Below, one piece after another: positions 9,293 through 53,137 of a stretch of 64,000 nucleotides of DNA. Position 1 is the first letter of the stretch; each line of letters starts with the position of its first letter. Under the pieces are notes generated by a model that was given only the letters and a program-made list of their open reading frames with translations, was not told the origin of the DNA and did not search any database. The position numbers and the translations under genes were made by a program. This stretch comes from an uncultured delta proteobacterium (GTDB lineage Bacteria > Desulfobacterota > WTBG01 > CAIYCZ01). The stretch spans positions 32,001 through 96,000 of the forward strand of contig CAWDOY010000001.1 of the NCBI GenBank assembly GCA_963803975.1, written 5' to 3'.

Positions 9293-10093
9293 ATGATTGG
9301 AAAACAGATTCGGTTAGAGCGTATCATTAATAGAAATTCGAGAAAGTCAGTGATTATCCCCATGGATCACGGGGTGACCATAGGCCCGGTGCCCGGTCTC
9401 ATTGACATGAAGAAGACCGTTGACGCCATTGCCGAAGGCGGCGCCAACGCCATCGTGATGCACAAGGGCCTGGTTGCCAACGGCCACCGCGGAAGCGGTA
9501 AAGACGTGGGTCTCATCATCCATCTGTCCGCCAGCACCAAGCTGGCACCGGACCCTAACGCGAAAATGCTCGTGTGCACGGTGGAGGAAGCAGTGCGGTT
9601 CGGCGCTGACGCGGTCTCCATTCATATCAACATCGGCGCTGATGATGAGAAAGACATGCTGCGGGATTTTGGCTATGTGTCGCGTGAAGCGCAATCCTGG
9701 GGCATGCCGCTGCTGGCCATGATGTATACCCGGGGCAAGAAGATAAAAAATGAATATGATGTGAGCGTGGTTAAGCACGCGGCGCGGGTCGGAGCCGAGC
9801 TGGGGGCGGATATTGTCAAAGTTCCCTACACCGGGTCTCCGGCAACGTTCCGCGAGGTTGTCGAGGGCAGTTTTGTGCCGGTGGTTATAGCAGGCGGAGA
9901 AAAGATGGAAACCGATGAAGATATTCTGAACATGGTCAAAGGCTCTCTTGATGCCGGGGGAGCGGGAGTTTCCATCGGCCGCAACGCCTTTCAGCACCAC
10001 GCGCCGGAGCGGATCGTAAAGGCAATAAGCCTCCTGGTGCATGAAGACAGCTCAATAAAAGAGGCTCTTAAACTGTTGAAGGAAAAAAGATGA
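9293..10093 (+). CDS. 2-amino-3,7-dideoxy-D-threo-hept-6-ulosonate synthase (DhnA-type class I aldolase, AroA')
   Basis: [13 protein letters not shown] (Schiff-base Lys), IAGG, GRNAFQ; coupled to DHQ synthase II. Confidence 0.85.
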
Positions 10094-11082
10094 AACAAAT
10101 CTGGGTCAAAGTTGATCCCTGGGATAAGGACATTGCCATTGCCGCCCTTGAGAGCGGTGCCGAGGCCCTGGTGCTGCCGCCGGGCCACAGCGCTGAGGCA
10201 AAAAAGTTCGGCGTCATCCGCACCATAGCAGCAGATGGCGATCTGAAGCCGGGGACGGATGTTTTCATGGTTGATATAGCCTCAAAAGAAGATGAGCAGC
10301 GGATAGCGCGGCTTGCCCCGGACAAGCCGGTGATGGTAACAACGCGGGACTGGACCATCATTCCCCTGGAGAATCTTATCGCCCAGCGGCAGAATATTTT
10401 TCTTGAGGTGGCAACGCTTGCCGATGCCCGGACCGCACTGGCAATTCTGGAACGGGGAGTTGACGGCATTGTTATCAACAACCGGGATGAGGCTGAGCTG
10501 CGAAAGATTATCGCGGCGCTCAAGGAAGAAGGGGAACAGCTGTGTCTGGCGGAAGCAGCAATCACCCGGGTGCTGCCGCTTACCATGGGGGACCGGGTAT
10601 GCATTGATACCTGCTCGTCAATGGGCCTTGGAGAGGGAATGCTCATTGGCAACAGCAGCAGCGGCATGTTTCTGGTGCACGCGGAGTCAATTGAAAACCC
10701 GTACGTGGCGCCGCGGCCGTTCCGGGTGAATGCCGGGCCCGTGCACGCCTATGTCAGGGTTCCAGGCGGCACGACGCGCTATCTCTCAGAACTGAAAGCC
10801 GGGGACCCGGTGCTCATTGTAACCAGCGAGGGAAAGACCGAACAGGCAGTGGTGGGGCGGGTTAAAATAGAGAAGCGGCCCCTGGTGTTCATCGAAGCAG
10901 CTGTAAAGGACAGGATTTTTTCCGCAATCCTGCAGAATGCCGAGACCGTGCGTCTTACCGCGCCCGGCGGCACCCCGGTATCTGTTGTTGAACTCAGCCG
11001 GGGAACTAAAGTCCTGGTGCTGGTGGAAGCGGCCGGCCGGCATTTCGGCATGAAGGTGGAAGAATCAATAGAAGAAAAGTAG
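10090..11082 (+). CDS. 3-dehydroquinate synthase II (AroB')
   Basis: [54 protein letters not shown]. Confidence 0.93.
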
Positions 11083-11182: not shown

Positions 11183-14125
11183 ATGGCGTTGCAGAATGTA
11201 TCCCCCCAGTGGAGATCTTTTTTGGTGCGGTTTATTTTACCAACCGCCATCACCATCGCCCTGTTTTTAACTTCCATTTTTTCTATCGTTATTCCCACCA
11301 TTGAGAAAAACAGCCTGGACCGCAAGCGGGAGATGATCCGCGAACTGACCAACTCAGCCTGGAACATTCTGGCGAAACTGGAGAACGATGTGCGGCTGGG
11401 GGTGCTGACCAGGGAGCAGGCCCAGAAGCAGGCCATTGACCAGATCCGCAACCTGCACTACGGCCAGGAGATGAAGGACTACTTCTGGATCAACGACATG
11501 CACCCGCGCATGGTTATACACCCGTACCGCACCGACCTGAACGGCAAGGATTTAAGCGACTACCAGGACCCGAACGGGAAACGGGTGTTCGTGGAATTTG
11601 TCAACGTGGTCAAAAAAGAGGGCTCCGGTTTTGTCAATTATATGTGGCAGTGGAAGGATGATAAAGCCCGCATTGTACCTAAAATCTCGTATGTCAAAGG
11701 ATTTGCGCCGTGGGGATGGATCATCGGCACCGGGATTTACATTGAAGACGTGAAGGCGGAAATTGCCCTGCTGATTCGCAATGTCATTGAGATCTCGCTG
11801 TTCATCCTGGTGGTCATGGCAGTGCTGCTGGCAACCATTATTATTCAGAGCTTCAGAACCGAGCAGCAGCGGCGCATTGCGGAGCAGGCGCTGCAGGAGT
11901 CTGAAGTGAAATACCGCACCCTGGTTGAGTCTGCTGCTGAAGGCATGCTTATGGCGCTCGAGGGCAGGTATATGTATGCCAACCAGACCATAGCAGCGCT
12001 GCTTGAATACAGCCAGGACGAGTTTTCGCAGATGCCCGTCCAGGAAATTTTCGTGCAGACACCAGCTCATCCCAGCTACCGGCACCTGCAGAATTTCATG
12101 GCGGGAAAGCCGCTTCCCGAAAGGTTTGAAGCGCAGTTGAAAACCAAATCAGGGGGCAGCAGGGATGTCATATTGTCCACATCCCCGATTGTTATCGGGG
12201 GCCGGGCAGGCTTTATCGTGGTTGCAACAGATATAACCCAGCGCAAGCAGGCCGAGGACGCGTTAGGTGTGAGCGAAGAAAAGTTTCGTACTCTGGCAAA
12301 CAACCTCAATGTCGGGCTGTTCAGGAGGACCATTGGCGACAGCCCGAAATTTATCGAGGTAAACCCGGCGCTGGTCTCGCTGCTTGGTTATGACAGCAAG
12401 GAAGAACTTCTTTCTATCTCAGCGGTCGATTTGTATGTTAATCCGGACGACCGGAAGAAATTTGAGCCAAAAGTCGAGCCGCAGGTTTCAAAAAGAGAAA
12501 TTAAAAGAGAAATTGTCAAGCTCAAGAAAAAAGACGGGACATTTTTTTTCTCCTCCATCTGGGCTGTTGTCATTAAAGATGAAGACGGGAATCCGCACTA
12601 TGTTGATGGGATTCTCGAAGACATAACAGACCTTAAATCCAGAGAAGAAGAGCAGGAACGCCTCCTTTCAGAAATGCAGGCGGCTTTGCTTTTTTTTAAC
12701 CAGCCGATAGAAAGCCTGCAGGTACAGGACGCCGTAGTATGTTCGCCCGCCACCAGCATTGCAGCGGCGGTATCCTTACTGGAGCAGCGGGAAACCGACG
12801 TCCTGTTGATACGAGATAACCAGGAAAACAATGTCGGGGTCATTACCGATCTGGACTTGAGAAAAAATGTTATGGCTAAAGGATGTCATCTGGATAAGCC
12901 CGTTTCAAGCATCATGAGTTCCCCCGTCATATCCATGTCCTGCAACTCGTGTATTTTTGAGGCCGGTCTTCTGATGGAGCAAAAACACATTTCCCATCTA
13001 TTTGTGACCAATAATCATGACCGTATTATTGGCGTGATTCGCAGTGACCACATCAGCGCAATTCAAAAATATTCTCCCACGATTCTTCTGCGGGATATCA
13101 ATAACGCCAAAGCTCCCCATGACATCATTGAGCACAATGCAGAACTCCCGTATCTTATCAATACCGTAATCAATAGCGGCGCAAAACCTCAATATATTAA
13201 TCATCTGACAACCATTATTGTAGATGCCGTGCTGCAAAAATTCATAGATTTTGCCATTCAGGAGCTTGGCATTCCTCCCGCCAGATTTACTTTTATAATT
13301 TTCGGCAGCGAGGGGCGTCAAGAGCAGACGCTGAGAACCGATCAGGATAATGCCATCATCTATGAAGATGTGCCGCCGGAGGCTGAGGAATCGGTGCAGG
13401 GGTATTTCCTGAATCTGGGGCAGCGGGTCTGCGGCTGGCTGCATCAGGCAGGGTATTCCTACTGCGAGGGAAACAATATGGCGCAAAATCCGCAATGGTG
13501 CCAGCCACTCTCTACCTGGAAGCGATATTTCAGTGAATGGATTGCCAACGGCACGGCAGAAGATCTGCTGAAAGCGAAAATCTTTTTTGATTTCAGAGGC
13601 GCTTATGGTGAACAGACTTTTGTGCAGCTGTTGCGAAAACATTTACATACGGTCATAGGGCAGAACCCGCGTTTTTTCCAATTGCTGGCAAGAAACGTGC
13701 TTCAGCTGAGCCCTCCCATAGGTTTCTTCGGGAATTTTGTTGTAGAATCGGTGGGAGAAAACAAGAAAGCTTTTGACATAAAAAGCTCCATGATGCCGAT
13801 TGTCGATTATGCAAGAATTTATGCGCTGCAGCATAACATAGCGGCGACCAATACCTTTGAACGATTAAAGCAGCTGTATGAACGCAACCTTCTTTCGCAG
13901 CAAAATTATCAGGAGATGATACAGGCATACAGCTATCTGATGCAGACCCGTCTTTGCACGCAGGCAGAGGCCATCATGCAGGGGAATAAACATCCCGATA
14001 ACTATGTCAGTCCCAGAAAACTGACCTACATTGAGCGCAAATTGCTAAAAGAGATATTTGCTCAAACAAAAAATTTTCAGGCGCGATTGAGCTATGACTT
14101 TACCGGACAGATGGGCGGTGTTTAA
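11183..14125 (+). CDS. Membrane sensor: TM-Cache-TM, PAS, PAS, CBS pair, DUF294 nucleotidyltransferase and DUF294_C
   Basis: Cache YFWIND..HPY..DPNGK..WGWIIGTGIY; two PAS/PAC ends (TDITQRK, EDITDLK); CBS VGVITDLDLR..IMSSPV; NTase FGSEGRQEQTLRTDQDNAIIY; FFDFR; YALQHNI..TNTFERL. Confidence 0.88.
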   Translation: MALQNVSPQWRSFLVRFILPTAITIALFLTSIFSIVIPTIEKNSLDRKREMIRELTNSAWNILAKLENDVRLGVLTREQAQKQAIDQIRNLHYGQEMKDYFWINDMHPRMVIHPYRTDLNGKDLSDYQDPNGKRVFVEFVNVVKKEGSGFVNYMWQWKDDKARIVPKISYVKGFAPWGWIIGTGIYIEDVKAEIALLIRNVIEISLFILVVMAVLLATIIIQSFRTEQQRRIAEQALQESEVKYRTLVESAAEGMLMALEGRYMYANQTIAALLEYSQDEFSQMPVQEIFVQTPAHPSYRHLQNFMAGKPLPERFEAQLKTKSGGSRDVILSTSPIVIGGRAGFIVVATDITQRKQAEDALGVSEEKFRTLANNLNVGLFRRTIGDSPKFIEVNPALVSLLGYDSKEELLSISAVDLYVNPDDRKKFEPKVEPQVSKREIKREIVKLKKKDGTFFFSSIWAVVIKDEDGNPHYVDGILEDITDLKSREEEQERLLSEMQAALLFFNQPIESLQVQDAVVCSPATSIAAAVSLLEQRETDVLLIRDNQENNVGVITDLDLRKNVMAKGCHLDKPVSSIMSSPVISMSCNSCIFEAGLLMEQKHISHLFVTNNHDRIIGVIRSDHISAIQKYSPTILLRDINNAKAPHDIIEHNAELPYLINTVINSGAKPQYINHLTTIIVDAVLQKFIDFAIQELGIPPARFTFIIFGSEGRQEQTLRTDQDNAIIYEDVPPEAEESVQGYFLNLGQRVCGWLHQAGYSYCEGNNMAQNPQWCQPLSTWKRYFSEWIANGTAEDLLKAKIFFDFRGAYGEQTFVQLLRKHLHTVIGQNPRFFQLLARNVLQLSPPIGFFGNFVVESVGENKKAFDIKSSMMPIVDYARIYALQHNIAATNTFERLKQLYERNLLSQQNYQEMIQAYSYLMQTRLCTQAEAIMQGNKHPDNYVSPRKLTYIERKLLKEIFAQTKNFQARLSYDFTGQMGGV
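11315..11610 (+). repeat. Near-identical direct repeat, copy 1 (Cache coding segment)
   Basis: About 10 mismatches in ~296 nt versus 15341-15636 by manual alignment; offset 4026 nt. Confidence 0.9.
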
Positions 14126-14884
14126 TTGATACTGGTAACCTCTGATACGCACTGTTATTACGATACCATCAATCAGCAGGTCGAATATGCCGAGGCGGTC
14201 CTGAACAATGCGATCTCCTGCGTCATTCATCTGGGAGACTTCGGGATTTATAAAGCCAATCTGCATGAATACTTCATCAGGAAGGGCAAGCGGTTTATCC
14301 GGCCGGTATATTTCATAGAAGGTAATCACGAGGACTTTCAGGCCTTCCCCCGGCTCACGGAAAAATACCGGGATTTTTTCACCTACCTCCCGCGGGGAAC
14401 CGTCCACACCCTGGATGGCTACCGCTTTCTGGCGCTCGGCGGGGCAGCCTATATGGATTCTTTCAACACGCAGAAGGGGGCGATCATCACAGATGCCAAT
14501 ATTAATCAGTGCCTTTCAATCCCTCGGGATGCCGTTGATATTATTCTTACCCATGACTGTCCGAACGGGATCGGCGTGCCGAATACGCCGGGGCTTGATT
14601 ATTATGGCGCAACCGGTTTTCCCCGAAGCGACGAACTGGGGGCTCATTTTAAGCCGCGACTGTGGCTGTTCGGCCATCATCACAAGCTCTTTGAATACGG
14701 GGATGCCTGTACGCGGTACTACGGTCTTGGCGACACCTGGAAGGGATTCGGCCTTTTAGATGCAGATTATCAGTTCAGGATTGTGATGCACCAGATTGCA
14801 TGGGAGCGCCCGCCCCTTATTGAAAGACTGCTGATAAAGCTCAAAATCATCAGGCCGGACCGGCCCCCGGTCAGCATCGAGTGA
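14126..14884 (+). CDS. Calcineurin-like metallophosphoesterase
   Basis: SDTH, HLGDFG, EGNHE, LTHD, FGHHH; TTG start directly abuts the upstream TAA. Confidence 0.87.
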   Translation: MILVTSDTHCYYDTINQQVEYAEAVLNNAISCVIHLGDFGIYKANLHEYFIRKGKRFIRPVYFIEGNHEDFQAFPRLTEKYRDFFTYLPRGTVHTLDGYRFLALGGAAYMDSFNTQKGAIITDANINQCLSIPRDAVDIILTHDCPNGIGVPNTPGLDYYGATGFPRSDELGAHFKPRLWLFGHHHKLFEYGDACTRYYGLGDTWKGFGLLDADYQFRIVMHQIAWERPPLIERLLIKLKIIRPDRPPVSIE

Positions 14885-15208: not shown

Positions 15209-16660
15209 ATGACAGCCCAGCAGCTACCTTTTCACTGGAAATCCTTTGGCATGAGGATTATTCTTCCCACCATCCTCACCATCGCGCTTTTCATCCTGGC
15301 GCTGTTTATGTTTATCATTCCCACCATTCAAAAAAACAGTCTGGACCGCAAGCGGGAGATGATCCGCGAGCTGACCAACTCAGCCTGGAACATTCTGGCG
15401 AAACTGGATAACGATGTGCGGCTGGGGGTGCTGACCAGGGAGCAGGCCCAGAAGCAGGCCATTGACCAGATCCGCAGCCTGCACTACGGCCAGGAGATGA
15501 AGGACTACTTCTGGATCAACGACATGCAACCGCGCATGGTCATACACCCGTACCGCACGGACCTGAACGGCAGGGATTTAAGCGACTACCAGGACCCGAA
15601 CGGGAAGAGGGTGTTTGTGGAATTTGTCAACGTGGTGAAGAAGGACGGCTTCGGCTATGTTGACTATTTGTGGCAGGACCGCGACAATAAAAATCTCGTT
15701 GTGCCTAAAATCTCCTATGTGAAGGGGTTTGCACCCTGGGGCTGGATTATCGGCACCGGGATTTACATTGACGACGTTCAGGCGGAAATCGCCCTGCTGA
15801 TCCGCTCCGTCATGAGGATTTCAGGGGTTATTCTGCTGCTGATGCTGCTGCTGCTCGCAAGCATTATCCGGCAGAGCTACCGCACCCAGAAACAGCTGTG
15901 GGTTGAAGAAGAGGAGCTTAAAAAAACCCAGGCCAGCCTGGCATTTGCAGAAAAAATGGCGTCCCTGGGAAAGCTCTCGGCAATGGTCGCCCATGAAATC
16001 AATAATCCTCTTTCAGGAATTCTATCCTATGCCAAACTCTCATCCCGATATCTGAGCAAAGCTACCGGTGACACTGAAACCGCGGCAGAGATCAATAATA
16101 ACCTCTCTTTTATCGCTGCCGAGGCCAAACGTTGCGGAGACATCGTCAAAAACCTGCTGCAGTTTGCAAAACGGGCTTCAGGGGAAGTGAAAGAGACGCA
16201 TCTCAATGAAATAGTTGATGTAAGCATGCAAGTGATTGCCCACAGCGTCAAGATGAAAAACCTGGAGCTCAAAAAACAGCTGGGCCAGGGAGACGACCTG
16301 ATTCAATGCGATGCAGGCGCCATTCAGCAGATCCTTATCGCCATGATTGTTAATTCCATAGAATCGTCATCACCCGGGGGGACCATTATTGCCCGCACTG
16401 ACTATAATGATGCGGCGTGCGTTCGGATCGCGTTGAAGGATTTTGGGGCGGGAATTGCCCCTGACGTGCTGCCGCACATATTTGAGCCTTTTTTCTCCAC
16501 AAAAGAATCAAATAAGAGCATGGGGCTGGGGCTGTCGGTGGTATACGGCATTGTCCAGCGGCACGGCGGTACCATCAGCGTGGATTCGCGCGCGGGCGCG
16601 GGTACCGAGTTTGTCATCACCCTCCCCCGCACACAACAGACCGCTGCCAACCAAACGTAA
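15209..16660 (+). CDS. Cache-domain sensor histidine kinase (NtrB-like)
   Basis: Cache between two TMs; H-box AHEINNPL; DFGAGI, FEPFFSTK, GLGLS, GTEF. Confidence 0.93.
   Translation: MTAQQLPFHWKSFGMRIILPTILTIALFILALFMFIIPTIQKNSLDRKREMIRELTNSAWNILAKLDNDVRLGVLTREQAQKQAIDQIRSLHYGQEMKDYFWINDMQPRMVIHPYRTDLNGRDLSDYQDPNGKRVFVEFVNVVKKDGFGYVDYLWQDRDNKNLVVPKISYVKGFAPWGWIIGTGIYIDDVQAEIALLIRSVMRISGVILLLMLLLLASIIRQSYRTQKQLWVEEEELKKTQASLAFAEKMASLGKLSAMVAHEINNPLSGILSYAKLSSRYLSKATGDTETAAEINNNLSFIAAEAKRCGDIVKNLLQFAKRASGEVKETHLNEIVDVSMQVIAHSVKMKNLELKKQLGQGDDLIQCDAGAIQQILIAMIVNSIESSSPGGTIIARTDYNDAACVRIALKDFGAGIAPDVLPHIFEPFFSTKESNKSMGLGLSVVYGIVQRHGGTISVDSRAGAGTEFVITLPRTQQTAANQT
15341..15636 (+). repeat. Near-identical direct repeat, copy 2 (Cache coding segment)
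   Basis: Matches 11315-11610. Confidence 0.9.
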
Positions 16661-16677
16661 TAAAGGAGTTTTGCACG

Positions 16678-18021
16678 ATGAAACCAGCCGACATAGGAAT
16701 CCTTATTGTTGATGATGAAGCTTCGGTACGGGATGCTCTCTATAAATGGTTTAAATTTGACGGATACCGCGTAGATACGGCTGAAGAAGCCACCAGCGCG
16801 CTTAAAAAGCTTCAGGAGGATTCCTGGGAGATTGTTCTGCTGGATATTAAAATGCCGGGCATGGACGGGCTGGAACTGCAGCGGCAAATAAAAAAGATTG
16901 ATAAGGACATTATAACTATTATCATTACCGCCTTTGCCTCAGTTGATACCAGCATCCAGGCGCTCAAAGAGGGAGCGTTTGATTACATTGTCAAACCCAT
17001 CGACCCTGATGATATGAGCCATCTCATCAGGAATGCAGTTGAACAGAGACGGCTGCTTACTGAAAACATGCAGCTGCGGCAGCAGATTGAGGAAATCTCC
17101 TACCCGGATGAGATTGTGGGAGAAAGCCCGGCACTTAAAAAGGTCATGGATAAGGTTGCCACGGTCGCGCAGACCGATTCAACCGTCATGATCCGCGGAG
17201 AAAGCGGCACCGGGAAGGAACTGATCGCACGGGCTATCCACAGCAACAGCAACCGCAGGTATTTTCCTATCATTACCATCAATTGCGGGTCCTATGCGGA
17301 AGGGCTGCTGGAAAGCGAACTTTTCGGCCATGAAAAGGGGGCCTTCACCGGGGCGCTGTACCGGAGACGGGGCAAGCTGGAAATGGCCGACAAAGGAACC
17401 ATATTTTTGGATGAGATCGGCAATATCGGGGAGAAGATGCAAATGGATCTGCTGCGGGTAATTGAAACGCGGCAGTTCACCCGGCTGGGAGGCGATAAGC
17501 TTATCAGCGTTGATTTCAGGATTATCAGCGCAACCAACAAGGACCTGGAAAAGGCGGTCAGGGAAGGAAGCTTTCGTGAAGACCTGTATTACCGGCTCAA
17601 TGTTTTTTCCATAACCCTGCCGCAGCTGCGTGAGCGAAAATCAGATATTGCGCTGATAGCACGGTTTTTCGTGAATAAATATTCCCAGTCGATGAATAAA
17701 ACTGTTACCGATCTTTCTCCCGAAACGCTGGATATGCTCATGAAATACCACTGGCCGGGAAACATCCGGGAGCTGCGGAACGTTATTGAGCGGGCGATGG
17801 TGGGTGCGCGGGGTCCCCGCATTGAAGTATCCGATCTCGCTTTTCCCTTTCATCCTTCCTCAAAACTGTCAAGCGAAGAGACCCTGGAGGCAGTGGAAAA
17901 AAATCATATCAAAGATATTCTGGATCGCACCGGGGGCAATGTCGCTCAGGCTGCAGGCATCCTCAAGATCAGCCGGCTTACCCTGTATAATAAAATAGGA
18001 AAATACCGGTTAAAAAAATGA
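16678..18021 (+). CDS. Sigma54-dependent response regulator (NtrC family)
   Basis: REC (VDDE, LLDIKMPG), GESGTGKE, GAFTGA, WPGNIREL, Fis HTH. Confidence 0.95.
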   Translation: MKPADIGILIVDDEASVRDALYKWFKFDGYRVDTAEEATSALKKLQEDSWEIVLLDIKMPGMDGLELQRQIKKIDKDIITIIITAFASVDTSIQALKEGAFDYIVKPIDPDDMSHLIRNAVEQRRLLTENMQLRQQIEEISYPDEIVGESPALKKVMDKVATVAQTDSTVMIRGESGTGKELIARAIHSNSNRRYFPIITINCGSYAEGLLESELFGHEKGAFTGALYRRRGKLEMADKGTIFLDEIGNIGEKMQMDLLRVIETRQFTRLGGDKLISVDFRIISATNKDLEKAVREGSFREDLYYRLNVFSITLPQLRERKSDIALIARFFVNKYSQSMNKTVTDLSPETLDMLMKYHWPGNIRELRNVIERAMVGARGPRIEVSDLAFPFHPSSKLSSEETLEAVEKNHIKDILDRTGGNVAQAAGILKISRLTLYNKIGKYRLKK

Positions 18022-18042
18022 TAGTGCTGCCGCGCCGATAGT

Positions 18043-18570
18043 ATGTTCTATATCTACATCGTGCCCATCAGCGGACAGGGACTCGGCTGTATTGAAGAAT
18101 TGCAGCGCTGCGTTGAGCATGCCTTTGGCGTCAAGACGAAATGCCGCGCCTTTAACGTCAACCTGCCGGACACCTTCGACCCCCACAGAAAACAGTACAA
18201 CTCCTCTCTTATCCTGCGGCAGTTAATTGCCGCGCCCCCAGCGGATGCATACAAAATTCTGGGGATTACCGGCATGGATCTTTTTATTCCCATACTCACC
18301 TATGTTTTCGGCGAGGCACAGCTTGACGGCATCGGGGCGGTGGTTTCGCTGCACCGGCTCAACAATCAGTTTTACGGTTTGCCGGAAGACCCCGGCCTGA
18401 TGCATGACCGGCTCCTGAAAGAGGCAGTGCATGAGCTGGGGCACACCTTCGGGCTGCTCCACTGCTTTCATCCCGGCTGCGTACTTAACGCATCCACCTA
18501 TGTGGAGGACATTGATCAGAAGTCGCGCGAACTTTGTTTCACCTGCCGGGAGACCATCAGATTGAAGTAA
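18043..18570 (+). CDS. Archaemetzincin (M54) zinc metalloprotease
   Basis: HELGHTFGLLHCFHPGCVLNAS...CFTC: HExxHxxGxxH plus Cys4 motif. Confidence 0.9.
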   Translation: MFYIYIVPISGQGLGCIEELQRCVEHAFGVKTKCRAFNVNLPDTFDPHRKQYNSSLILRQLIAAPPADAYKILGITGMDLFIPILTYVFGEAQLDGIGAVVSLHRLNNQFYGLPEDPGLMHDRLLKEAVHELGHTFGLLHCFHPGCVLNASTYVEDIDQKSRELCFTCRETIRLK

Positions 18571-18649
18571 GGTTCAGGGGGCGGAACATCAGTGGAGGGG
18601 TGGCAGAGGTATGGCGTGCCAGATAGGATTTTGTATGACAGCCGCCAGC

Positions 18650-19495
18650 TTATGGCACGGTCTTTGTTGTTAAGCAGTTTTCCGGAGAAGGGCAATTCTC
18701 GCTCCGGGATAAAGAGTCTATTATCTGATAGTACTGCTCCGCGCTGAGAAGCTCGGCAAGAGAATTTATTTTCACCCCCCCATCCTGCATGGTGGGGCCG
18801 AGGTCGTTCGATGAGTGCTGCAGCATTGCCGTGCCCGCTGCAGTCAGTTCCTGGTGCTTCTGCTGGTACCAGGCGAGAGCCTTTTTGCCGAACAGCAGGT
18901 TCCGCAGGTCATGTTCAAGGGTTGCGGGCTTTACGGTGACCATCCACCCCTCATCCCAGGGGTCGCTCATTATCAGCTCAGGTTCCTTTTGCAGCCGCTT
19001 GTTTATCAGCTGGATGGTTCCGGTAAGCGGTGCAATAACCGGTATGATATGGTGTTCCTGAATTATGTGCGCGCAGCATTCCCCCTGGCGTATCATCTCG
19101 CCTTCCTGCGGCAGAACTACTGCTTTCAACCGAACCATCAGCCGGGTCAGCACATCATCAATGCCAATCCGGACATTTTCCGGGTCCTCAACTTTTACCC
19201 AGCAGTGACCGGGATGATAAAAGAGCGACCAGCGCAGATGGAGAGAGGCATCCGGCACTGAAGAGAGCTCTTCCCCGGTCCCGGCTTCCTGCCGGGAATC
19301 CTCTGCTGCGGCCTCATTGCGCATCACCTGATCAAACATGCAGGTTTCGCACCGGTAGTCACGGGCGCAGAGCTTATAGGAGATCAGGCCGGTGGTCATC
19401 CAGACGCATCTTTTTTCTTCTTCCGGAATCAGATGACACTCTTTTTTGCTCATAGACTTGCAACCGTATTCAGCCGGGTTGTGATAAACAGACAT
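18650..19495 (-). CDS. GcvH-like (lipoyl-carrier fold) protein with Cys-rich N-terminus and no lipoyl Lys; start may be 19453
   Basis: YHPGHCWV, RIGIDD, APLTGTI..IN, DPWDEGWM; the ESVK position reads IQEHH; N-terminal CVWM..C..DYRCETCMFD. Confidence 0.8.
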   Translation of the reverse strand: MSVYHNPAEYGCKSMSKKECHLIPEEEKRCVWMTTGLISYKLCARDYRCETCMFDQVMRNEAAAEDSRQEAGTGEELSSVPDASLHLRWSLFYHPGHCWVKVEDPENVRIGIDDVLTRLMVRLKAVVLPQEGEMIRQGECCAHIIQEHHIIPVIAPLTGTIQLINKRLQKEPELIMSDPWDEGWMVTVKPATLEHDLRNLLFGKKALAWYQQKHQELTAAGTAMLQHSSNDLGPTMQDGGVKINSLAELLSAEQYYQIIDSLSRSENCPSPENCLTTKTVP

Positions 19496-21423: not shown

Positions 21424-21692
21424 ATGGCACACGGACCAACGACACAATGGGGAGAGGACAAAGCGTCAGAGTACAAGTCAAAGCTCGGGGTGTATCTGTT
21501 TATTTTTTATACTTTAGTGTATGCCGGCTTTATAATCATAAACGTAGTGAGTCCCAAACTGATGGGAGTAAAAGTGATTTAGGCCTTAATCTGGCAGGCG
21601 TGTACGGGTTCGGTCTGATTCTACTGGCTATCGTTATGGGACTTATTTACAACTACCTCTGTTCACAAAAGGAATATGCAGTTAATAAATAG
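21424..21692 (+). CDS. DUF485 (YjcH-like) small membrane protein, frameshifted near 21578
   Basis: MAHGPTTQWGEDKASEYKSKLGVYLFIFYTLVYAGFIIINVVSPKLMG, then another frame LGLNLAGVYGFGLILLAIVMGLIYN; typical position upstream of actP. Confidence 0.8.
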
Positions 21693-21707: not shown

Positions 21708-23609
21708 ATGATTTATGCAGCTTCGCCGTTCGCAATCGGCTTGTTTATCGCGTTTGTGTTATCTGTTCTCGGGATTTCGTCGTATTTTGCCAAGAAGACG
21801 CAGTCATCAAAAGGGTATTATGCGGCCGGTGGAACCATTCACTGGGGTGTCAACGGCATAGCGTTTGCCGGTGATTATCTTTCTGCCGCCTCATTTCTGG
21901 GAATCTGCGGGATGATCGCATTTGACGGTTATGACGGATTTCTGTATTCCATAGGGTATCTTGCTGGCTGGGTTGTGGCCTTGTTTGTGGTGGCAGAACC
22001 CCTGAAGCGTTTCGGTAAATATACGTTTACCGACGCGCTTGATTATAAATTCGGTTCCAAGGGAATACAGCTCACCGCAGCCATCAGCACCCTTGTTGTT
22101 TCCCTGTGCTATCTGGTGCCGCAGATGGTCGGCGCCGGCGACCTGGTTACTCCGCTGCTGGGATTTCCCCATTATGTCGGGGTTATCATGGTTGGCGCTA
22201 TTGTTATATTCATCGTGGCGACAGCCGGCATGACCTCAACAACGTATGTTCAATTTATAAAAGGCGGCCTCCTGATCGTTTTTTCCACAATTCTTACCAT
22301 CTGCGTTTTCAATAACGGTATTTCAAAGAAACCTTCAGAAAATTACCACGAGTTTAAAGCACTGAAAGCTGTTGCCGCAGGAGGAGCTATTACTGCAGTT
22401 GAGGACACGTCCTATAAAATCGCCGGTGAATTTAAAGATAAAAAGGGACAGTTTGTAAAGCTTGAAAAAGACGGCATTAATTCATGGTGGAAGGCCGGTG
22501 AAAAAAATGGGGCGCCGGTGCTTGAAGAAGCACTCTCGCTCACGACTCGCGCGGACGGCACCAAGCTCTACAATGGCGAGCCCAAAGAAGCGCGGAAGTT
22601 TTTCCAGGTCGGCAGCGCAAGCAAGATTATTGTGGATGGCCAGGAAGTTGACAAGACCGGCGGCCTGGGTCCGTTTCAGTTCCTTGAGACTTTGGAATCA
22701 AGCGAGATTGTCCGTTTCGGCAAGGCAGCTATCAGCGACGGCAAAGACAAGGTTTCAGTCTTTTATCAGAACCCGACTTCCGGAAAAGATATCATGCGCC
22801 CCGGGCTGAAATTTAAAGTGGATAAGGGCTCTGATTTCATGTCAAAACTTAATTTCGTGTCCCTTATGATCGCCCTGTTTTTCGGCACCTCCGCACTTCC
22901 GCACATCCTCATCCGCTATTACACGGTCCCCAGCCCGAAAGACGCGCGCAAATCAACCATTGTTGCCATCGGCTCCATCGGTTTTTTCTACATCCTCACC
23001 CTGTTCATGGGCCTGGGGGCAATGGTCTCCGGCGTCATTGACCTTGAGAGCAGCAACATGTCGGCGCCGCTGCTCGCAAAATATTTCGGCACCGCCCTTT
23101 TTGCCATAATATCCGCAATCGCTTTCGCGACGGTTCTTGGTACGGTGAGCGGCCTGATTGTCGCCGCCTCAGGAGCAGTGGCACATGACCTGATGTCAAA
23201 TTTTTTAGGCATTGAAATGACCGATCAGGGCCAGGTTAAGGCAGGGAAAATTTCGGCAGTTGTTGTCGGCTGTATCGCAATACTGCTGGGCATACTCTGC
23301 AAGGGAATGAACGTATCGTTTCTCGTAGGCCTTGCGTTTGCCGTGGCCGCATCCGCCAATCTGCCGGCAATCATCATGCTGCTGTTCTGGAAAAAAACGA
23401 CCTCTAAAGGGATTGCCGCTTCCATTGTAGTAGGCATGGTATCAGCGCTGGGGATGATTCTGCTCTCTCCCAGCACCTATGCGGACATTTATGGCCTGCC
23501 TGCTACACAGGCCCCCATTCCCCTTGATAACCCCGGCATCATATCGATACCGCTCAGTTTTATAACGCTGGTGGTGATTTCACTGGTGACACAGAAGCAG
23601 GCGAAATAA
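21708..23609 (+). CDS. actP: Cation/acetate symporter ActP-like (SSS family) with a ~160-aa soluble insert
   Basis: NGIAFAGDYLSAASFLG, GTSALPHILIRYYTVP, AFAVAASANLP, NPGIISIPL. Confidence 0.9.
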   Translation: MIYAASPFAIGLFIAFVLSVLGISSYFAKKTQSSKGYYAAGGTIHWGVNGIAFAGDYLSAASFLGICGMIAFDGYDGFLYSIGYLAGWVVALFVVAEPLKRFGKYTFTDALDYKFGSKGIQLTAAISTLVVSLCYLVPQMVGAGDLVTPLLGFPHYVGVIMVGAIVIFIVATAGMTSTTYVQFIKGGLLIVFSTILTICVFNNGISKKPSENYHEFKALKAVAAGGAITAVEDTSYKIAGEFKDKKGQFVKLEKDGINSWWKAGEKNGAPVLEEALSLTTRADGTKLYNGEPKEARKFFQVGSASKIIVDGQEVDKTGGLGPFQFLETLESSEIVRFGKAAISDGKDKVSVFYQNPTSGKDIMRPGLKFKVDKGSDFMSKLNFVSLMIALFFGTSALPHILIRYYTVPSPKDARKSTIVAIGSIGFFYILTLFMGLGAMVSGVIDLESSNMSAPLLAKYFGTALFAIISAIAFATVLGTVSGLIVAASGAVAHDLMSNFLGIEMTDQGQVKAGKISAVVVGCIAILLGILCKGMNVSFLVGLAFAVAASANLPAIIMLLFWKKTTSKGIAASIVVGMVSALGMILLSPSTYADIYGLPATQAPIPLDNPGIISIPLSFITLVVISLVTQKQAK

Positions 23610-47508: not shown

Positions 47509-50500
47509 TTACTGTTTATCTCTCAGGGAAGACGCGTCGCTGGCACTGTCGCGTATAATTTTCCCGTCTTGCTGCGCTGCTGTATATTCCCTGCCCTTAT
47601 AAACCAGGCGCTTCACCGTGAGCGTTCCCTTTCGGCAGAAAAAGCGTATCCGGGATGACAAGGCTGCCGTTTTGCATGGTAAGACCAAGGATTTTGTATG
47701 CGGTAAAAAGCATGCGGGCTGCCGCACCGGTGTACCAGCTCCATCCCCCGCGGCCGGCGTAGCCGTAGCCATAGTAAACATCCGCCGGCTGCTGATGCGG
47801 CGGCAGGCCATAGCGGTCAATCCTCTCAGGAGTGATATCATCAAGCGGCGAAATCTTTATCCACACCTTCAATGCCCTTGCCAGATACTGCCCGGCGCGA
47901 TTTTCGTCGCCCGCAGAACGGGAAAGCTCTGAAAGTTTCACCAGGGCGTCCACAAGCCATGATGCCCCGTGTGAATACTGGCCGCCGTTTTCCCGGACCC
48001 CCGGCGGATAGTCGGAAAGCTTACCGGGATTCGGGCGAGAGCTCTCAGTGAAAGCAGGGGAGAGCAGCAGCACCAGGTTTTCCTGCTCAAGGTCCTTCAG
48101 CCCCTGCTCCACGGCGCAGGCTCCCCGGTCAAAATCAGCGGCACCCGAAATCACGGGCCAGGATGCGTTCAGGGCATCGTTTAAAACCATTTCCTCGCCG
48201 CTGTCGGTGATTGCGCGCACGTAACGCTGCTCATCACGCCACATGGCAGCGAGTGCTTTGCGCAGCTCTGCCGCCCGGTCAAGGTAGAATGTTTTCTTTT
48301 CATCGCCTTCCTTGAGCCCTGCGATGTTTGCAAAATGCGTGAGAATATCGTAGAGAAAAAACCCCAGCCAGGTGCTCTCGCCGCGGCCCCGGAAGCCCAC
48401 CAGGCTCAGGCCGTCATTCCAGTCCCCGGTGCCGATGAGCGGCAGGCCGTGTTCTCCAAGCCGCTGCAGTGTTAAATCCAGGGCTCTGACGCAGTGCCAA
48501 TAGAGCGGTTCGCGGTCACGTGACAGCCGGGGGGCAAACATCACGCCTTCCCGGTCGCGCGGAATGCGCCTTCCTTCCAGATAGGTAAGCTCTTCATCAA
48601 GTATGGTCAGATCTCCGGTTGCCTCCACGTACTGGTACACCAGATAGGCCAGCCACAGATGAGGGTCAGACGCGCGGTTGCGCGCGCCCAGACCGGTCCG
48701 GTCTTCCCAGCTCTGGTGCCACCACTGCATGACATCGCCGGCAAAGAACTGCTGCCCGGCATGAAGAAGTATCTGACTGCGCGCCATCTCAGGGTGCAGG
48801 TAGAGAAACGGCAGCAGGTCCTGCAGCTGGTCGCGATACCCATACCCTCCGCTTCTCTGGTTGGGGCCGGTTCTGCCCCACAAATGGGCGGCAAGCACCT
48901 GGTAGGGAAGCCAGTCATTCACCATGCGGTCAAAGCCCGGATCGCTGGTTTCAATTCTCATCACGGACAGGGTTTCCGCCCACCAGCGCTCTGTTTTTTT
49001 CAGAGCCGCATTGGCCGCTGATTTGTCCAGAAGACCACGGATAATTGTGCGTGCCTGATCCGCATCCCCGGCCTGACCCACAACCATGACCATGTTCTCC
49101 TCAGCCCCCGCGGGAATAGTAAGGGTTCCGCAGAAGCCAGCTATTCGATAGCCGTCATCCAACACATCCGCGCATGGTATGCCGTGCTCGACCATAAAAG
49201 GATTGGTAAGATCTCGCCCATTGCCGCCCACAAATCGGGAGCGTACTGTTTCATAGGCCAAAACCTTCAGGCTTGTTGCCACAAACGCCGTGCCCCGGTA
49301 AAAATCGTTTTGGGGGTTTGAGAAGAACAAAGCCCGGGTGCTCTCATCATATTCGGCGCTGATTTTCCCGCGCGTGTCAGATGGAATTTCCCCGAGCATA
49401 ATCTGCAGGTAGGGCACCACCCGGTACGTCATGGTCCGGGAAGATTTATTTTTTATTTTCAGCCGCCGTACTTCCGCCGGTTCGTGCGGCGGCACAAAGA
49501 GCGTGTATTCCAGGTCAACGTCAGGGGTCTCTTTCCGGTAAACAGCATACCCGCGGCCGAAGGTGATGTCGCAGGGTTCATCGGTTCTGCGAAACGGCAA
49601 AAAGGTCGGACTGTCAAGAGCGCCTGTTTCCATGTTGTAAAGATAGAGCGCCTGACCGGGGACCTGCACCGGGGCATTGTTCAGCGAAAACGGCGTAACG
49701 CCGTTCTGCTGAGAGTTGCCCATGAAGGAATAGATCTCACCCTCATTGTTGAGCACCACGCCATACTCACGCTCATTGGCAATAACATGGGTCCATGGCC
49801 GGGGCGTGTCCCAGTCCATGGAAAGCTCGGTGCCGTCAGGAGAAAAAGAGAAAAGCGTTTTTTTGCTGCCGGGTTTTGTCCCGGCCTCTTCTGCTTCATC
49901 TGTCGGAGCGCCGAAGCCGTGCAGTATCCGGCGCTTGTCAAAGGAGGCCTGCAGCGCCTTCTGCGAGCTGACCGGGAGCTTCAGATATTTTTTAATCAGC
50001 TGCTGTGCCTGCTCCATGCTGGCTGCATAGCCGTCGGCAAACACAACCTCCGTGGAGCCGTGCGGGGCAAGTCCACAGTGCAGCCGCAGGCTGGCTGCAG
50101 GGTCAAAGGTGTACAGGAGCCCCTCATCAGAGAGTCTCCGCGGTCTTTCCTGCAGGCCCGCAGGCATGCGCAGGCTGCCGTGGCCGATGAAGAACAGCCG
50201 CGAATCTTCATAGCCGGCGAGCAGAATATTGCCGCCCGGGTTCTCCCCCACCGCGTGAAAAGCGACCTCGGGTGATACTTTTCTTTGTATTGGATCAAAA
50301 TTTGAATCTTTCAGGAGACGGTTTCGGGCTATGATGGCATTAAGGCCCGGAATAAACCATGTGCCGATATGGATATTATTGAAGTCAGGATGCCGCAGAT
50401 ACGCGTCTGAGACATTCAGCGCAAACTCCCGGTAGCTGGTCAGCTCTATGGTGCGGGCCCGGCTTTCAAGGTTGGTGAGCTTCAGGGTCCACAGCTCAAC

Positions 50501-53137
50501 CGTGTCCTGGCAGTCAATGCGCACAATTGCTTCCGCCCTGATTCCGTTCCAGGTATTCACCATGCGCAGCGAAGACCGGTCAAGCTGGGTAACGCAGTAG
50601 TCCTCTCCCACCCGGCGCATGGGCTGGCAGGTAAGAGACCATAGCCGTGCAGGCGCATCAGGAGGCATATCCAGGTCTTTAAGATAGAAAAATTTGCCGC
50701 GCAGCTGCAACGGGTCATGGAGCCTGCGGGTAAGATCAATTTCATTGCCCGGGCGCACTGAGCTGAACACCCTGCTCCAGCCCCGCCCGTCAGCTGCAAG
50801 CGTCAGGGTATAGAAGCCGTTGTGTATGACAAAGGTTGTGCCGTCAAGACCCGGATTGGCTGTTTCCTGTCTCCGTGAGGCTGCCTGCTGCGGATGCGCA
50901 CCGCGCGAAGGCCGGTCTTTATTCAGCTGCCGCGCAAGCAACACAACCCCGACGAATAATGAAATTGTCAAGAATACTCCCGGGAGGAGTGCCTGCGGGA
51001 ATAGTGCCAGCGGATGAGCTTTGGCTATGGCCTCAGCACCATCCCAGGCAACATTCCAGTCACTGCCGCGGGGAATGTAAAACGGGATTAACAGCGGCGC
51101 CCACGTGGCAAACCGCCGCAGGCCCGATGGTATCACGCGCGTCCTCATTGCATGGCCGAGAAAACGCGCCGTCTTTTCATCGACCACATCCATGCCGACA
51201 AACGACAAATTCACCAGCGTTGCCACGCGCAGGCCCATGTGATCTATAAAGATGGCAATGCGCACCCAGTCGTAGGCCAGAAGATTGGTGAAGGTCTGCA
51301 GGCTCCAGGCACGGAACGCCGCGGGCGAGGAGGTGAGGCTTTTCATTGTCGCGACAGCAGTGCGCAGCGCGCCGTCCTGATTGTACCATGACGGATCAGG
51401 CGACATGCGCAGGAAGGAATAGATGATCGGCGCCATCCACAGGCCCCAGCGCTGCACGCGGAAAGCCTGCTCGACCATTGCCACGATACCCTGCCGGGTA
51501 AAAAGGTTTTTCAGCGGCGCCGTGCTTCTCTGGACCAGCGCGGTCAGCGCCACCAGGTTGATGCTGAACAGGGGCGCCGCGATCGACCAGTTGATGACGC
51601 CGGAGAGCGATTCGTTGAAGAAAAGGCGCACGCCGCCGGTCACCGCGCCGAGGTTCATCGCGCCCCACTTGCTGAACAGCGGGTAGATCACATAGTCCTC
51701 GACTTTAATCCCTGCGGAAGCATAAAAGAGGGTTGCGTAGTTTTTAAATTTTGCCGCCACCACCGCCGCCTGCATGGTGTCAAAGTACCAGCAGAGCGCC
51801 CCGCCCGCAAGGCCGCCCATAATCGCCTCGGTGATGTAGATTCTCGGGGCCTGCACGCGCAGCCGATTCCCAAGGAGCGTGACGTTCAGCACATCACGCA
51901 GCAGGTTGACGGCAGCGTAGGCCGCGGCACCAGCCGCGATTCCATAGAGGAAGCGGGCTGCAGGGGCTGCGGCGGGCAGACCCTCGCGCACGGCAAAGGC
52001 AACTACCGCACCGACAACACCGCCGCGCAGGCAGTGATCCCAGCGGGAATAGTTGCTTCTGAGGCGCATGACAAACGGCAGGCTGCCTTCAAAGCTTTCA
52101 ATAATATTTTTAATGAACGGGAAGATGATGACGCCGGCTATGCCGGCACAGCTAACAGGATAAGCTGTGAGCAGGGTCCGGACGCCCGGAACTGAGAGCG
52201 CTCCGGCAGCCGCGTGGATCAAGCCCATAAACACCGCGCTGTACACAGCGCCCTGGGTGAAGCCGCTTTTATAATGTCCCGGCCCCCAGTACCAGGCGGG
52301 GTGCTTAGAGTGCAGGGAATCCATAATAAGCCCGGTGAGCAGAAACGTCTGCCCCCACAGGCCTGCCTGCGAAACAGTCGCCGCGGCAATGGCTGCAAGC
52401 GCGCCGACGACAGGCGGAAGAGCTGCTACCCCGGCCCCTGAGCCGAGGCCCGCGATCGCGGGAGTGGCGGATGAGAACAGGGCACTCGCGAGAAGAAGCG
52501 CGTGCATCCGCGCATCCGTAAGGAGCCTTCCCGCGAGCAGCAGGGTCAGGCCGTTAGCGACCGCTTCATTGATAACGATAAGAACAGCCGCTTTCCCCAT
52601 CCACTGCAGCACATCAGGGGTAAGCTTTGCGTTGAAGGCAAAAAACCGCCCGATGCTTTCAAGCATTATTGGTGACTGCAGCACGAGCAGGCAGTTGAAA
52701 AGCAACGGCACTGCCAGGGTAAAGCTGCCGGCAACAGGAGAAACATGGCGGCCTTTGGAGGAAGCACAGTAGGCAATGATTAAAAGATAGCTGATACATG
52801 CTGCTGCCGCGGCTGGGCTGGTTATGGAAAACAGCTCATGCCAGGCAACAGGCGCCTGCCATATCTTCAAATCTGGGGCGGCAGCGGCTGCCAGCGCGCC
52901 GGCTATAAGAGCATCCTGCAGGGCTTCAGGCATGGTAAGGTGGCAGCGCGTAAAGCCGTATGTTATTATCTCGGCAGCAAGCATGCCCAGCAGGGCAGCA
53001 ACAATAATAGTCGGCGCAGTTCCCCCCTGCTGCACAGCAATGGCAGCGGCAGCAATCGCGCAAGCGCCTGCCACATATAATAATGTCTGAGCCAGTAATC
53101 CTTTATTGTTTTCCAGTATACTGTCTGCCTGCTGCAT
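47509..53137 (-). CDS. Large GH94 glycoside phosphorylase-like protein with ~740-aa polytopic membrane N-terminus; probable frameshift near 47630
   Basis: Two Glyco_transf_36-like modules; TPRPW, GYRDQLQD, GDWNDG, PPGVRENGGQYSH, GRGGWSWYTG as in the C-terminal half of cyclic beta-1,2-glucan synthases. Confidence 0.88.

Follow-up and report, generated by a model that had tools for sequence, protein, structure and literature searches.

Protein regulation by nucleotidylation has been predicted for the DUF294/COG2905 family for 25 years. COG2905 proteins have the order cNMP_binding-CBS-CBS-DUF294-DUF294_C and an adjoining RNase_T/DEDDh gene, as in P. putida PP_0354/PP_0353 and P. fluorescens Pflu5625. 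They are predicted to regulate through nucleotidylation (PMC5715377; 10.64898/2026.09.07.749794), and their role is called unclear in the 2026 preprint (10.64898/2026.09.07.749794). Three further systems resemble parts of the locus described here: GlnE, with two nucleotidyltransferase (NTase) domains; GlnD, with NTase, HD and ACT domains; and DrrA/SidM, a secreted protein-Tyr AMPylase acting on host Rab1, which is undone by a separate hydrolase (PMC12663964).

A membrane form of the COG2905 module

The window, by which we mean the whole 64,000-nucleotide stretch analysed, encodes a receptor and an adjoining metallophosphoesterase (MPE) that together are a variant form of the COG2905/DEDDh module. 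Both forms have the CBS-DUF294-DUF294_C core (~50% identity between the receptor and the nearest soluble forms), an intact NTase motif preceded by CBS domains, a coupled phosphoesterase-type gene, and a tie to ActP/SSF, a small subunit and acetate metabolism. They differ in that the receptor is a membrane rather than a soluble protein, with transmembrane (TM) sCache_2 plus PAS input instead of a cNMP-binding domain, and in that its partner is a Dbr1-like MPE (PHP in others), not DEDDh. In the literature searched, we found no publication describing a membrane Cache-PAS form of a DUF294 protein. The features of the locus are as follows.

11183..14125, + strand: receptor nucleotidyltransferase, 980 aa, TM-sCache_2-TM-PAS-PAS-CBS-CBS-DUF294-DUF294_C (open reading frame, Pfam, hydropathy)
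11222..11302, + strand: TM1, aa ~14-40 (hydropathy)
11318..11767, + strand: sCache_2 sensor (Pfam), pocket Y100, W102, H113, Y153, W155, K167
11774..11848, + strand: TM2, aa ~198-222 (hydropathy)
11894..12631, + strand: two PAS domains (Pfam), without conserved His/Cys
12701..13066, + strand: CBS pair (Pfam), first-site motif G552-x-x-T555-x-x-D558 conserved
13142..14101, + strand: DUF294 and DUF294_C, pol-beta NTase of the GlnE/GlnD/DrrA type with helical C-domain (Pfam, motif, fold)
13304-13348, + strand: catalytic motif G708-S709...D720-x-D722 (alignment)
14126..14884, + strand: calcineurin-like MPE, clade A, 252 aa (open reading frame, Pfam), candidate eraser
15209..16660, + strand: histidine kinase with paralogous sCache_2, Cache 88% identical in amino acids, same six pocket residues
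16678..18021, + strand: sigma-54 response regulator of the NtrC type, paired with the kinase (Pfam)
21424..21692, + strand: small transporter subunit, DUF485-like, interrupted in the present assembly by a frameshift of one base near 21580
21708..23609, + strand: ActP/MctC-like sodium:solute symporter (Pfam, census), best candidate target

Open reading frames, Pfam and hydropathy bear out the 980-aa Cache-PAS-PAS-CBS-DUF294 architecture with an intact NTase motif that an earlier note on this DNA had described. Two hydrophobic segments bracket the Cache domain, and Pfam places sCache_2 at aa 46-195, PAS domains at ~244-356 and ~366-483, the CBS domains, DUF294 at aa 654-791 (E 3e-45) and DUF294_C at aa 829-973 (E 8e-44). 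PF03445 and PF10335 occur in order and above their gathering cut-offs (154 and 149 bits vs 21 and 22.5). As the note had also claimed, no kinase, cyclase or HTH family is among the receptor's 11 Pfam matches; PF00027 (cNMP-binding) is likewise missing, with two TMs, sCache_2 and PAS in its stead. The receptor is the sole DUF294 match genome-wide.

An assembly chimera caused by the Cache repeat, which the note had named as fatal to its reading, is suggested by a ~310-bp tract that the receptor shares almost identically with the gene of the kinase, 4 kb away, but is vanishingly improbable. Full-length relatives (950-1030 aa) make up 75 of the 83 best-ranked matches screened, with a Pfam set identical to the receptor's, and receptor-type loci span many phyla. 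An independent metagenome contig (L127) matches over 12.8 kb at 99.3% and spans both Cache copies, and contigs of two further runs bridge the Cache-TM2-PAS junction (11687-12588 with 1 difference, 11581-12579 with 16). Relatives, L127 and bridging contigs together refute the chimera: the receptor is a real, widespread bacterial membrane protein. RNA-library contigs cover 20 of 30 bins, the NTase/MPE region not being among them.

Sensory domains and the neighbouring two-component pair

Short-chain carboxylate sensors of the sCache_2 type have the pocket set Y, W/F, H, Y/F, W/F, K, according to PMC11844446. Mapping this set, as given there, onto the receptor by spacing and by alignments with 4K08 and 5G4Y, we found all six pocket residues of His-type C2/C3 carboxylate sensors. 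Across 58 Cache domains, five of these are invariant and W102 is present in 55. The receptor shares its sensor domain (E 3e-38 to 4K08, with a match to the MctS model too) and the pocket residues with Adeh_3718 (4K08), PscD (5G4Y/5G4Z) and MctS. The output differs: those three act through a chemotaxis or histidine-kinase domain, and the receptor carries an NTase instead. Judging from the pocket residues, the external ligand is probably an acetate-like short-chain carboxylate, which narrows the external Cache ligand that the note had left general.

The near-identical Cache of the adjacent histidine kinase contains a recent gene-conversion tract (~15315-15635 in the kinase, ~11290-11610 in the receptor), and this kinase is probably the transcriptional arm for the same ligand.

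For redox sensing by the PAS domains, one of the inputs that had been suggested, we found no support. No His or Cys in the PAS region is conserved above 50% in the alignment of relatives, and one PAS is absent in 17+7 of 65 membrane forms, leaving redox or cofactor sensing unsupported; the pair probably serves signal transmission or dimerisation. The CBS pair is the least conserved receptor domain (42% mean identity). Its conserved G552-x-x-T555-x-x-D558 is what we take to be the adenine-nucleotide site motif of the first CBS site, and the second site is degenerate, with H623 in the receptor. The note's energy sensing by CBS is therefore plausible, on these residues, at one site only.

The nucleotidyltransferase and its phosphoesterase partners

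The NTase motif, GSEGRQEQTLRTDQD at receptor aa 708-722, is strongly conserved: G708, S709, R712, E714, D720, Q721 and D722 are invariant in all 34 aligned full-length proteins, and G708, S709, D720 and D722 in 62/62 of a set partly chosen by a DQD-containing pattern. Profile alignment puts it in register with GlnD of E. coli (E 0.0015) and, at weak scores, with both GlnE domains. A model of the NTase (pLDDT 95) gave VIA-align Z scores of 27.4 to the GlnE N-domain, 26.4 to the GlnE adenylylation domain and 24.7 to DrrA (TM 0.67), the next entry scoring 11.4; the alignments with GlnE and DrrA extend over ~300 residues (rmsd 2.8-3.5) and take in the NTase core, N-helices and C-terminal helical domain. 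Foldseek returned four matches at E<=0.001, again GlnE/DrrA proteins. A single-sequence fold of aa 481-980 was discarded (pLDDT 38), and a profile search with the NTase alignment against PDB sequences gave no real match. The GlnE removing domain scores as high as the adding domain against the model.

The modelled NTase fold is thus closely like that of protein (de)AMPylases only. Likeness to GlnE and GlnD covers the whole-domain fold (Z 26-27 to GlnE), the G-x-x-G...E...DxD residues in register and, presumably, a writer/eraser logic. The receptor differs from both in its ~12-20% identity and weak profile scores against the E. coli proteins, its single NTase without HD or ACT (Pfam), its candidate eraser on a separate gene and its input through a membrane receptor; GS or PII genes do not recur among the annotated neighbour clusters of receptor loci. 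The likeness to DrrA lies in the AMPylase-domain fold, at 12-14% identity, but the receptor is an endogenous sensor in environmental bacteria with no sign of secretion. Of the two outputs that the note had offered, this modelled fold would favour protein NMPylation over synthesis of a nucleotide signal.

The MPE begins with a TTG on the base after the receptor TAA and is translationally coupled to it. Its Metallophos match (PF00149, E 8e-15) is above the cut-off, and D7/H9, GD38, GNHE66-69, H143 and GHxH183-186 are invariant in 24/24 aligned homologues, confirming the calcineurin-like gene with metal-binding motifs that had been seen directly after the receptor stop. The only PDB matches of the MPE-A profile are to the lariat debranching enzyme Dbr1 (E 1e-16, aa 2-204), an enzyme with a Cys as first metal ligand, a lariat-recognition loop and activity on 2'-5' RNA. 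Dbr1, the closest solved relative by profile, shares the GNHE and GHxH motifs; the MPE differs in having an Asp aligned to the Dbr1 Cys, in being shorter and without the Dbr1 insertions, and in being bacterial and tied to a receptor gene.

We took a six-frame census of partners at 65 non-redundant membrane-form loci and 35 soluble forms. A phosphoesterase (MPE or PHP) lies within 700 bp or is fused in 49 of the 65 membrane loci (MPE-A 24, MPE-B 12, MPE-C 3, PHP 10) and in 37 of the 45 flanked by 900 bp or more on both sides; the other 16 (8 of the 45 adequately flanked) have no recognised adjacent phosphoesterase. DEDDh was found within 4.5 kb at 0/65 membrane loci, and the soluble forms have DEDDh in 17/35 and MPE in 1/35. 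No locus in the census has two partner types, and so the mutual exclusivity of phosphoesterase and DEDDh that the note had raised holds in the sampled loci. So does co-conservation: the MPE occurs in the same 15 of 42 class genomes as the receptor. The genome's single RNase_T match sits on another contig, not beside the receptor, and an N-terminal PHP is present in 7/7 long forms scanned. A GAF-HD-GYP gene upstream in L041/L047 was not counted as a fourth eraser, these being just two related loci. In a quick NTase tree, the PHP, MPE-B, MPE-C and DEDDh partner types follow clades and MPE-A is spread over several groups; we draw no direction of evolution from it because its deep nodes are weak and its sample is biased to best-ranked matches.

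Such an exchange of partners, across three phosphoesterase folds that are unrelated to one another, speaks for a writer paired with an eraser. That DUF294 instead removes a nucleotide, like the GlnE N-domain, or regulates by binding alone, with the MPE a separate housekeeping enzyme, would suit the best fold match, the GlnE removing domain tied with the adding domain. We regard this as highly improbable: the repeated, lineage-specific recruitment and fusion of MPE, PHP and DEDDh, hydrolases unrelated to one another, makes most sense with DUF294 as the maker of the bond they break, and the asymmetry of the soluble-pair mutants of P. putida, among them a pp_0353 mutant with a defect on pyruvate, fits a writer plus an eraser.

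MPE, PHP and DEDDh folds are all phosphodiesterases of nucleotides or nucleic acids. With Dbr1 nearest to the MPE and DEDDh enzymes being nucleases, nucleotide or RNA substrates would suit these partners too. Decidedly unlikely, in our judgement, is an NTase that makes a diffusible dinucleotide or short oligoadenylate, perhaps 2'-5', for transporters or CBS domains, with MPE, PHP or DEDDh degrading it. The partner folds and the MPE-A matches to Dbr1 alone would fit, and such a signal would account for structurally unrelated transporter partners; against it, the fold matches listed include no CD-NTase, OAS or cyclase, the three close ones modify proteins, and the annotated neighbourhoods show no recurring gene for a dedicated nucleotide-binding effector. 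Tailing or capping of a transcript or tRNA, trimmed by the nuclease-like partner and controlling actP mRNA, is very unlikely. RNase_T-like and Dbr1-like partners would agree with it, and mRNA degradation was proposed by the authors of PMC9927547, but folds of the CCA, poly(A) and TUTase kinds are poor matches (TM ~0.2 for TUTase, E >0.05), Pfam finds no RNA-binding domain in the receptor, and the scheme is less suited to a membrane-bound receptor.

Candidate targets and a proposed mechanism

Among 42 genomes of the source's class, whose relatives are not independent, an ActP-like gene is present in exactly 15/15 DUF294 genomes and 0/27 others, and tracks DUF294 even when unlinked (G010, G011, G015). 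Genes co-occurring with the receptor may simply travel as a single block. An OFA/SfMCT (MFS) transporter occurs in 13/15 receptor genomes vs 15/27 receptor-less ones and, not tracking the receptor, was rejected as a target. Of the transporters that the note had listed, ActP/DUF485 is accordingly the best-supported candidate and the OFA transporter falls away. The DUF485-like gene is intact in L127, and a Tyr at the TM2 end is present in 42/42 DUF485/DUF4212 subunits listed, read by eye. The RYYT loop of partner symporters is invariant in clade A only, others having RFFT, RFYV and so on, and no cytoplasmic Tyr invariant across all partner symporters was found. Transporter partners include unrelated folds (SSF, SatP, AmtB). 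A search for NTase-symporter fusions among proteins >1715 aa scored 0/1086 candidates, which is weak evidence.

In Bacillales, DUF294-linked amtB lacks an adjacent glnK in 6/6 such genomes (table read by eye); a missing glnK was dropped as a DUF294-specific sign, because glnK is also missing from the rows for staphylococci and the B. cereus group. A sigma-54 consensus gave 5 window matches vs 6.9 expected by chance, none of them preceding actP or the MFS gene, and sigma-70 and terminator scans were at chance level.

Our preferred reading, to which we give an even chance, is reversible NMPylation under the control of carboxylates, gating uptake by DUF485-ActP, a one-component transmembrane system for post-translational control. 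The periplasmic sCache_2 very probably binds acetate, propionate or pyruvate. The signal would pass via TM2 and PAS to the cytoplasmic DUF294, the CBS pair adding adenine-nucleotide status. By analogy with GlnE, GlnD and DrrA, DUF294 would then put an NMP, likeliest AMP or UMP, on a protein hydroxyl, probably Tyr. Gene context suggests that the coupled MPE cleaves this phosphodiester and that PHP or DEDDh may do so in other lineages. Most tentatively, the target could be the DUF485-ActP importer, with the tag lowering uptake when acid is plentiful. We found no enzyme assay for the putative DUF294 writer or phosphoesterase eraser in the literature searched. Taken as a whole, the note's interpretation is partly borne out: the fusion, partner co-conservation and exclusivity stand and the modelled fold is closest to protein AMPylases, but PAS redox sensing and the OFA target find no support.

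The same chemistry might act elsewhere, on acetyl/propionyl-CoA synthetase or another metabolic enzyme, on the receptor, or on a regulator of actP expression, an unlikely alternative. In P. putida, growth on propionate is slowed by either soluble-pair deletion but not by loss of actP-I (10.64898/2026.09.07.749794), which means that processes other than ActP are affected as well; these mutants fit our preferred reading partly. The acs gene is present at 10/17 well-flanked soluble-form loci, the symporters have no universal acceptor Tyr, and a part in the expression of the symporter was a speculation of Price et al. Against a non-transporter target, of 30 membrane loci flanked by at least 7.5 kb on each side, 24 include an SSF or SatP transporter and only 2 have acs, ActP tracks the receptor exactly across the 42 genomes, and a membrane anchor would put the enzyme beside a membrane target.

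A broader proposal, possible but on the doubtful side, is of a receptor class with direct AMPylation/UMPylation output that tags ActP or a DUF485/DUF4212 Tyr, the tag being stripped by MPE, PHP or DEDDh. Such a protein would be to nucleotidylation what a receptor kinase is to phosphorylation, switched by external acetate or propionate, and its tag may be a short oligo-AMP chain. What the membrane form supplies is a nameable ligand (C2/C3 carboxylates) and a transporter that tracks the receptor genome by genome. If the proposal is true, it would add a new receptor type with NMPylation output and new deAMPylase folds, the three nuclease-type folds being new protein de-NMPylases, and DUF294/COG2905 would be a GlnD/GlnK-like shut-off for solute importers (ActP, SatP, AmtB). 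In sediment anaerobes, where acetate is the central carbon intermediate, it would mean post-translational control of acetate uptake.

The receptor and its neighbourhood

The gene pair consists of two abutting open reading frames (ORFs):

11183-14125: receptor ORF, 980 aa; sCache_2, two PAS, CBS, DUF294 and DUF294_C (Pfam)
first base after the receptor ORF: metallophosphoesterase (MPE) ORF, 252 aa; Metallophos (Pfam)

Hydropathy places two transmembrane segments around the Cache domain, and the receptor is the sole DUF294 match in the whole genome. The downstream genes encode a histidine kinase with a Cache domain, an NtrC-type regulator, an archaemetzincin, a GcvH-like protein and a lactate transporter of the SfMCT type (MFS); a DUF485-like gene and a symporter resembling ActP/MctC also lie there. 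Many related loci carry the kinase, regulator, archaemetzincin and Cys-rich GcvH-like genes (15209-19495) as a group (clusters of 15-27 members). The DUF485-like gene (21424-21692) carries a 1-base frameshift near 21580 in the window assembly and is intact in the related locus L127 and in contigs of sequencing run X2, reflecting either an assembly error or strain-specific loss. Immediately upstream of the receptor, an archaeal-type aldolase and 3-dehydroquinate synthase II pair (9293-11082), common only to a few close relatives, is outside the receptor module. The minus strand holds an 1846-aa ORF at 47597-53137.

The earlier note had allowed for an assembly chimera caused by a Cache repeat. 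Using receptor residues 480-980 as query, we screened 83 proteins (the top 82 and one more) from the best 120 of 3376 matches; 75 have 950-1030 aa and the same domain set. When species genomes were scanned, the best 80 of 615 matches gave 76 loci, to which 45 metagenome loci were added. Among those best 80, membrane forms bear the labels Deltaproteobacteria, Spirochaetota, Bacteroidota, Actinomycetota, Chloroflexota, Planctomycetota and Gemmatimonadota, among others. L127 matches the window over 12.8 kb at 99.3%, and contigs from two runs bridge the Cache-to-PAS junction. Together, these full-length relatives, the L127 match and the bridging contigs rule out a chimera and leave next to no room for an artefact.

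The repeat is a gene-conversion-like tract shared by receptor (11290-11610) and kinase (15315-15635), with near-complete identity in locus L112 and partial identity in L113 and L116. Across codons 44-145, receptor and kinase differ synonymously in only 10/92 same-residue codons. Ten comparisons of orthologous receptors with one another gave 34-54 differences in about 80 such codons, and receptor and kinase of L112 gave 0/96. The repeat is genuine, and so few differences suggest occasional gene conversion; L112 alone may be an assembly collapse. A second close Cache protein occurs in all 15 receptor-bearing genomes of the organism's class.

Sensor and nucleotidyltransferase domains

The Cache domain aligns with Adeh_3718 (4K08) and with PscD (5G4Y), both at E of about 1e-37. 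Six pocket positions have been named for C2/C3 carboxylate binding, with His marking acetate, propionate and pyruvate sensors and Leu marking lactate sensors (PMC11844446). The window has Y100, W102, H113, Y153, W155 and K167. Five of these are invariant in 58/58 Cache domains and W102 is kept in 55/58, in a set that includes some metagenome loci picked by a pattern containing Y153/W155; all six are invariant in 34/34 proteins from the protein homologue search.

Redox sensing through the PAS domains, as the earlier note had suggested, fared less well: no PAS-region His or Cys is kept above 50% in the membrane-form alignment, and 24/65 membrane forms have a single PAS (BLAST), leaving cofactor-based sensing unsupported. 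Of the two CBS sites, the first is conserved across 62 membrane forms (G552 59/62, T555 47/62, D558 54/62) and the second is not. Two Planctomycete forms (L068:9104-12370, L070:4039-7338) read PHP-...-PAS-CBS-DUF294 with no Cache match, which suggests a different or absent sensor.

An alignment-based fold model of residues 630-975 (pLDDT 95) was compared with 48,161 PDB representatives. The closest folds, each over ~300 residues, are the GlnE N-domain (Z 27.4), the GlnE adenylylation domain (Z 26.4) and DrrA (Z 24.7), after which the match falls to Z 11.4; Foldseek agrees. By profile alignment, GSEGRQE...DQD sits on the E. coli GlnD catalytic motif (E 0.0015) and, weakly, on both GlnE domains (E 0.05-0.07). 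Enzymes of the GlnE, GlnD and DrrA class add NMP to proteins or remove it (PMC12663964). The receptor belongs to the DUF294 family and lies outside COG2905 proper; its putative mode of action is like that of GlnD and GlnE, yet it is neither. Modelled fold likeness to GlnE and DrrA does not establish function, and the GlnE remover domain ties with the adder. That tie speaks for a DUF294 domain that removes a nucleotide, or acts by binding alone, which we nevertheless consider very improbable. DUF294_C is described as derived from HEPN and as lacking the RNase motif (PMC3710099), and oligoAMPylation has been attributed to MNT domains (PMC13000451). That the nucleotidyltransferase (NTase) domain makes a free nucleotide messenger appears distinctly unlikely.

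Three NTase cysteines (13430-13501; aa 750, 761, 773), of which C761 is kept in 60/62 membrane forms and 101/101 sequences of a mixed alignment, are a possible metal or redox site. Loci L151, L152 and L154 each carry two Cache-PAS-CBS-DUF294 genes tail to tail with no adjoining phosphoesterase; in each pair, one gene is a long-branch form whose GS.GR.E motif is altered.

Phosphoesterase partners

Partners were sought in six frames with HMMs from neighbour clusters. Dereplication at 90% identity had left 65 membrane-form, 35 soluble cNMP-form and 6 truncated loci; loci lacking a full NTase ORF by ORF calling were left out beforehand. A phosphoesterase (MPE or the PHP type) is fused or within 700 bp at 49/65 membrane loci, and at 37/45 of those flanked on each side by 900 bp or more. 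MPE clade A, the window's type, occurs at 24/65, downstream and mostly overlapping the receptor stop; clade B at 12/65, upstream; clade C at 3/65, convergent and weaker; and PHP at 10/65, fused or directly upstream. PHP is fused in 7/7 long forms scanned and also appears as a separate gene among the neighbour clusters.

DEDDh (RNase_T/dnaQ-like) genes were found within 4.5 kb at 0/65 membrane loci (HMM, six-frame); at L151 one lies at 4.7 kb on the opposite strand. Partners of the 35 soluble forms were DEDDh (17), MPE (1) or none (17), in a census whose DEDDh HMM represents one clade, whose soluble set is nearest relatives only and whose kin are not independent. No membrane or soluble locus in this census has two partner types, and no RNase_T emerged when 37 neighbouring frames at unresolved loci were scanned with Pfam. 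Phosphoesterase and DEDDh are thus mutually exclusive here, a pattern the earlier note had raised, and its pairing of receptor with phosphoesterase is also borne out: of the 42 class genomes, the 15 that carry DUF294 are also the 15 with MPE-A, apart from one stop-containing MPE-A fragment. The only PDB matches to the MPE profile are to Dbr1, a phosphodiesterase.

In Desulfobacterales-labelled loci (L007-L043, e.g. L017:6928-9102), the DEDDh partner is a protein of about 720 aa whose N-terminal part contains a PAS domain, so the putative eraser there would have its own sensor. At L041 and L047, a GAF-HD-GYP gene immediately upstream of the receptor is possibly a fourth hydrolase partner.

A transporter as candidate target

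Soluble relatives are predicted signal-transducing NTases (PMC5715377, citing Aravind and Koonin 1999); COG2905 genes cofit with a DUF4212 subunit (10.1101/072470), and some Bacillales carry amtB in one operon with DUF294 and dnaQ (PMC3412718). Our literature search, mostly of open-access journals, found no paper on the membrane form, which supplementary architecture tables may name. P. putida mutants that lack the DEDDh gene pp_0353, or actP-I, grow more slowly on pyruvate and those that lack the NTase gene pp_0354 do not (PMC9927547), as predicted by an inhibitory tag with an eraser. The authors' explanation is instead mRNA decay; we regard RNA as the substrate as improbable. A 2026 preprint (10.64898/2026.09.07.749794) confirms the pyruvate result and suggests protein modification, calling the function unclear. 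It also reports that propionate growth is slowed in both the pp_0353 and pp_0354 mutants and not in the actP-I mutant.

This propionate defect argues for a further target, and a tagged protein other than the DUF485-ActP transporter is an unlikely but serious alternative. Against it, a transporter of the SSF or SatP type is present at 24 of the 30 membrane loci whose flanks each reach 7.5 kb or more (42/65 overall), versus 2 of these 30 for the acetyl-CoA synthetase gene acs. The ActP-like gene also tracks DUF294 in the class genomes, occurring in exactly the 15 with DUF294 (unlinked in three) and 0/27 others, as compared with 13/15 and 15/27 for SfMCT as a control; these genomes are 59-100% complete, such that a gene not found is not necessarily absent. 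Outside the class, the receptor gene of genome G051 neighbours SatP, and the genome has no MPE-A and no copy of this ActP. No SSF-NTase fusion was found, and the likely cytoplasmic loops hold no Tyr common to all partner symporters. The receptor-tied symporter clade (21708-23609) has a large insertion at about aa 205-375 that classic ActP lacks.

The most likely mechanism, to which we give about even odds, is one in which an external C2/C3 acid would set the activity of the receptor's protein NMP-transferase, which would tag the DUF485-ActP importer. The sign, with the tag as the off state, is taken from the P. putida asymmetry alone. The MPE would take the tag off, and the sister Cache kinase would serve as the transcriptional arm of the same signal.
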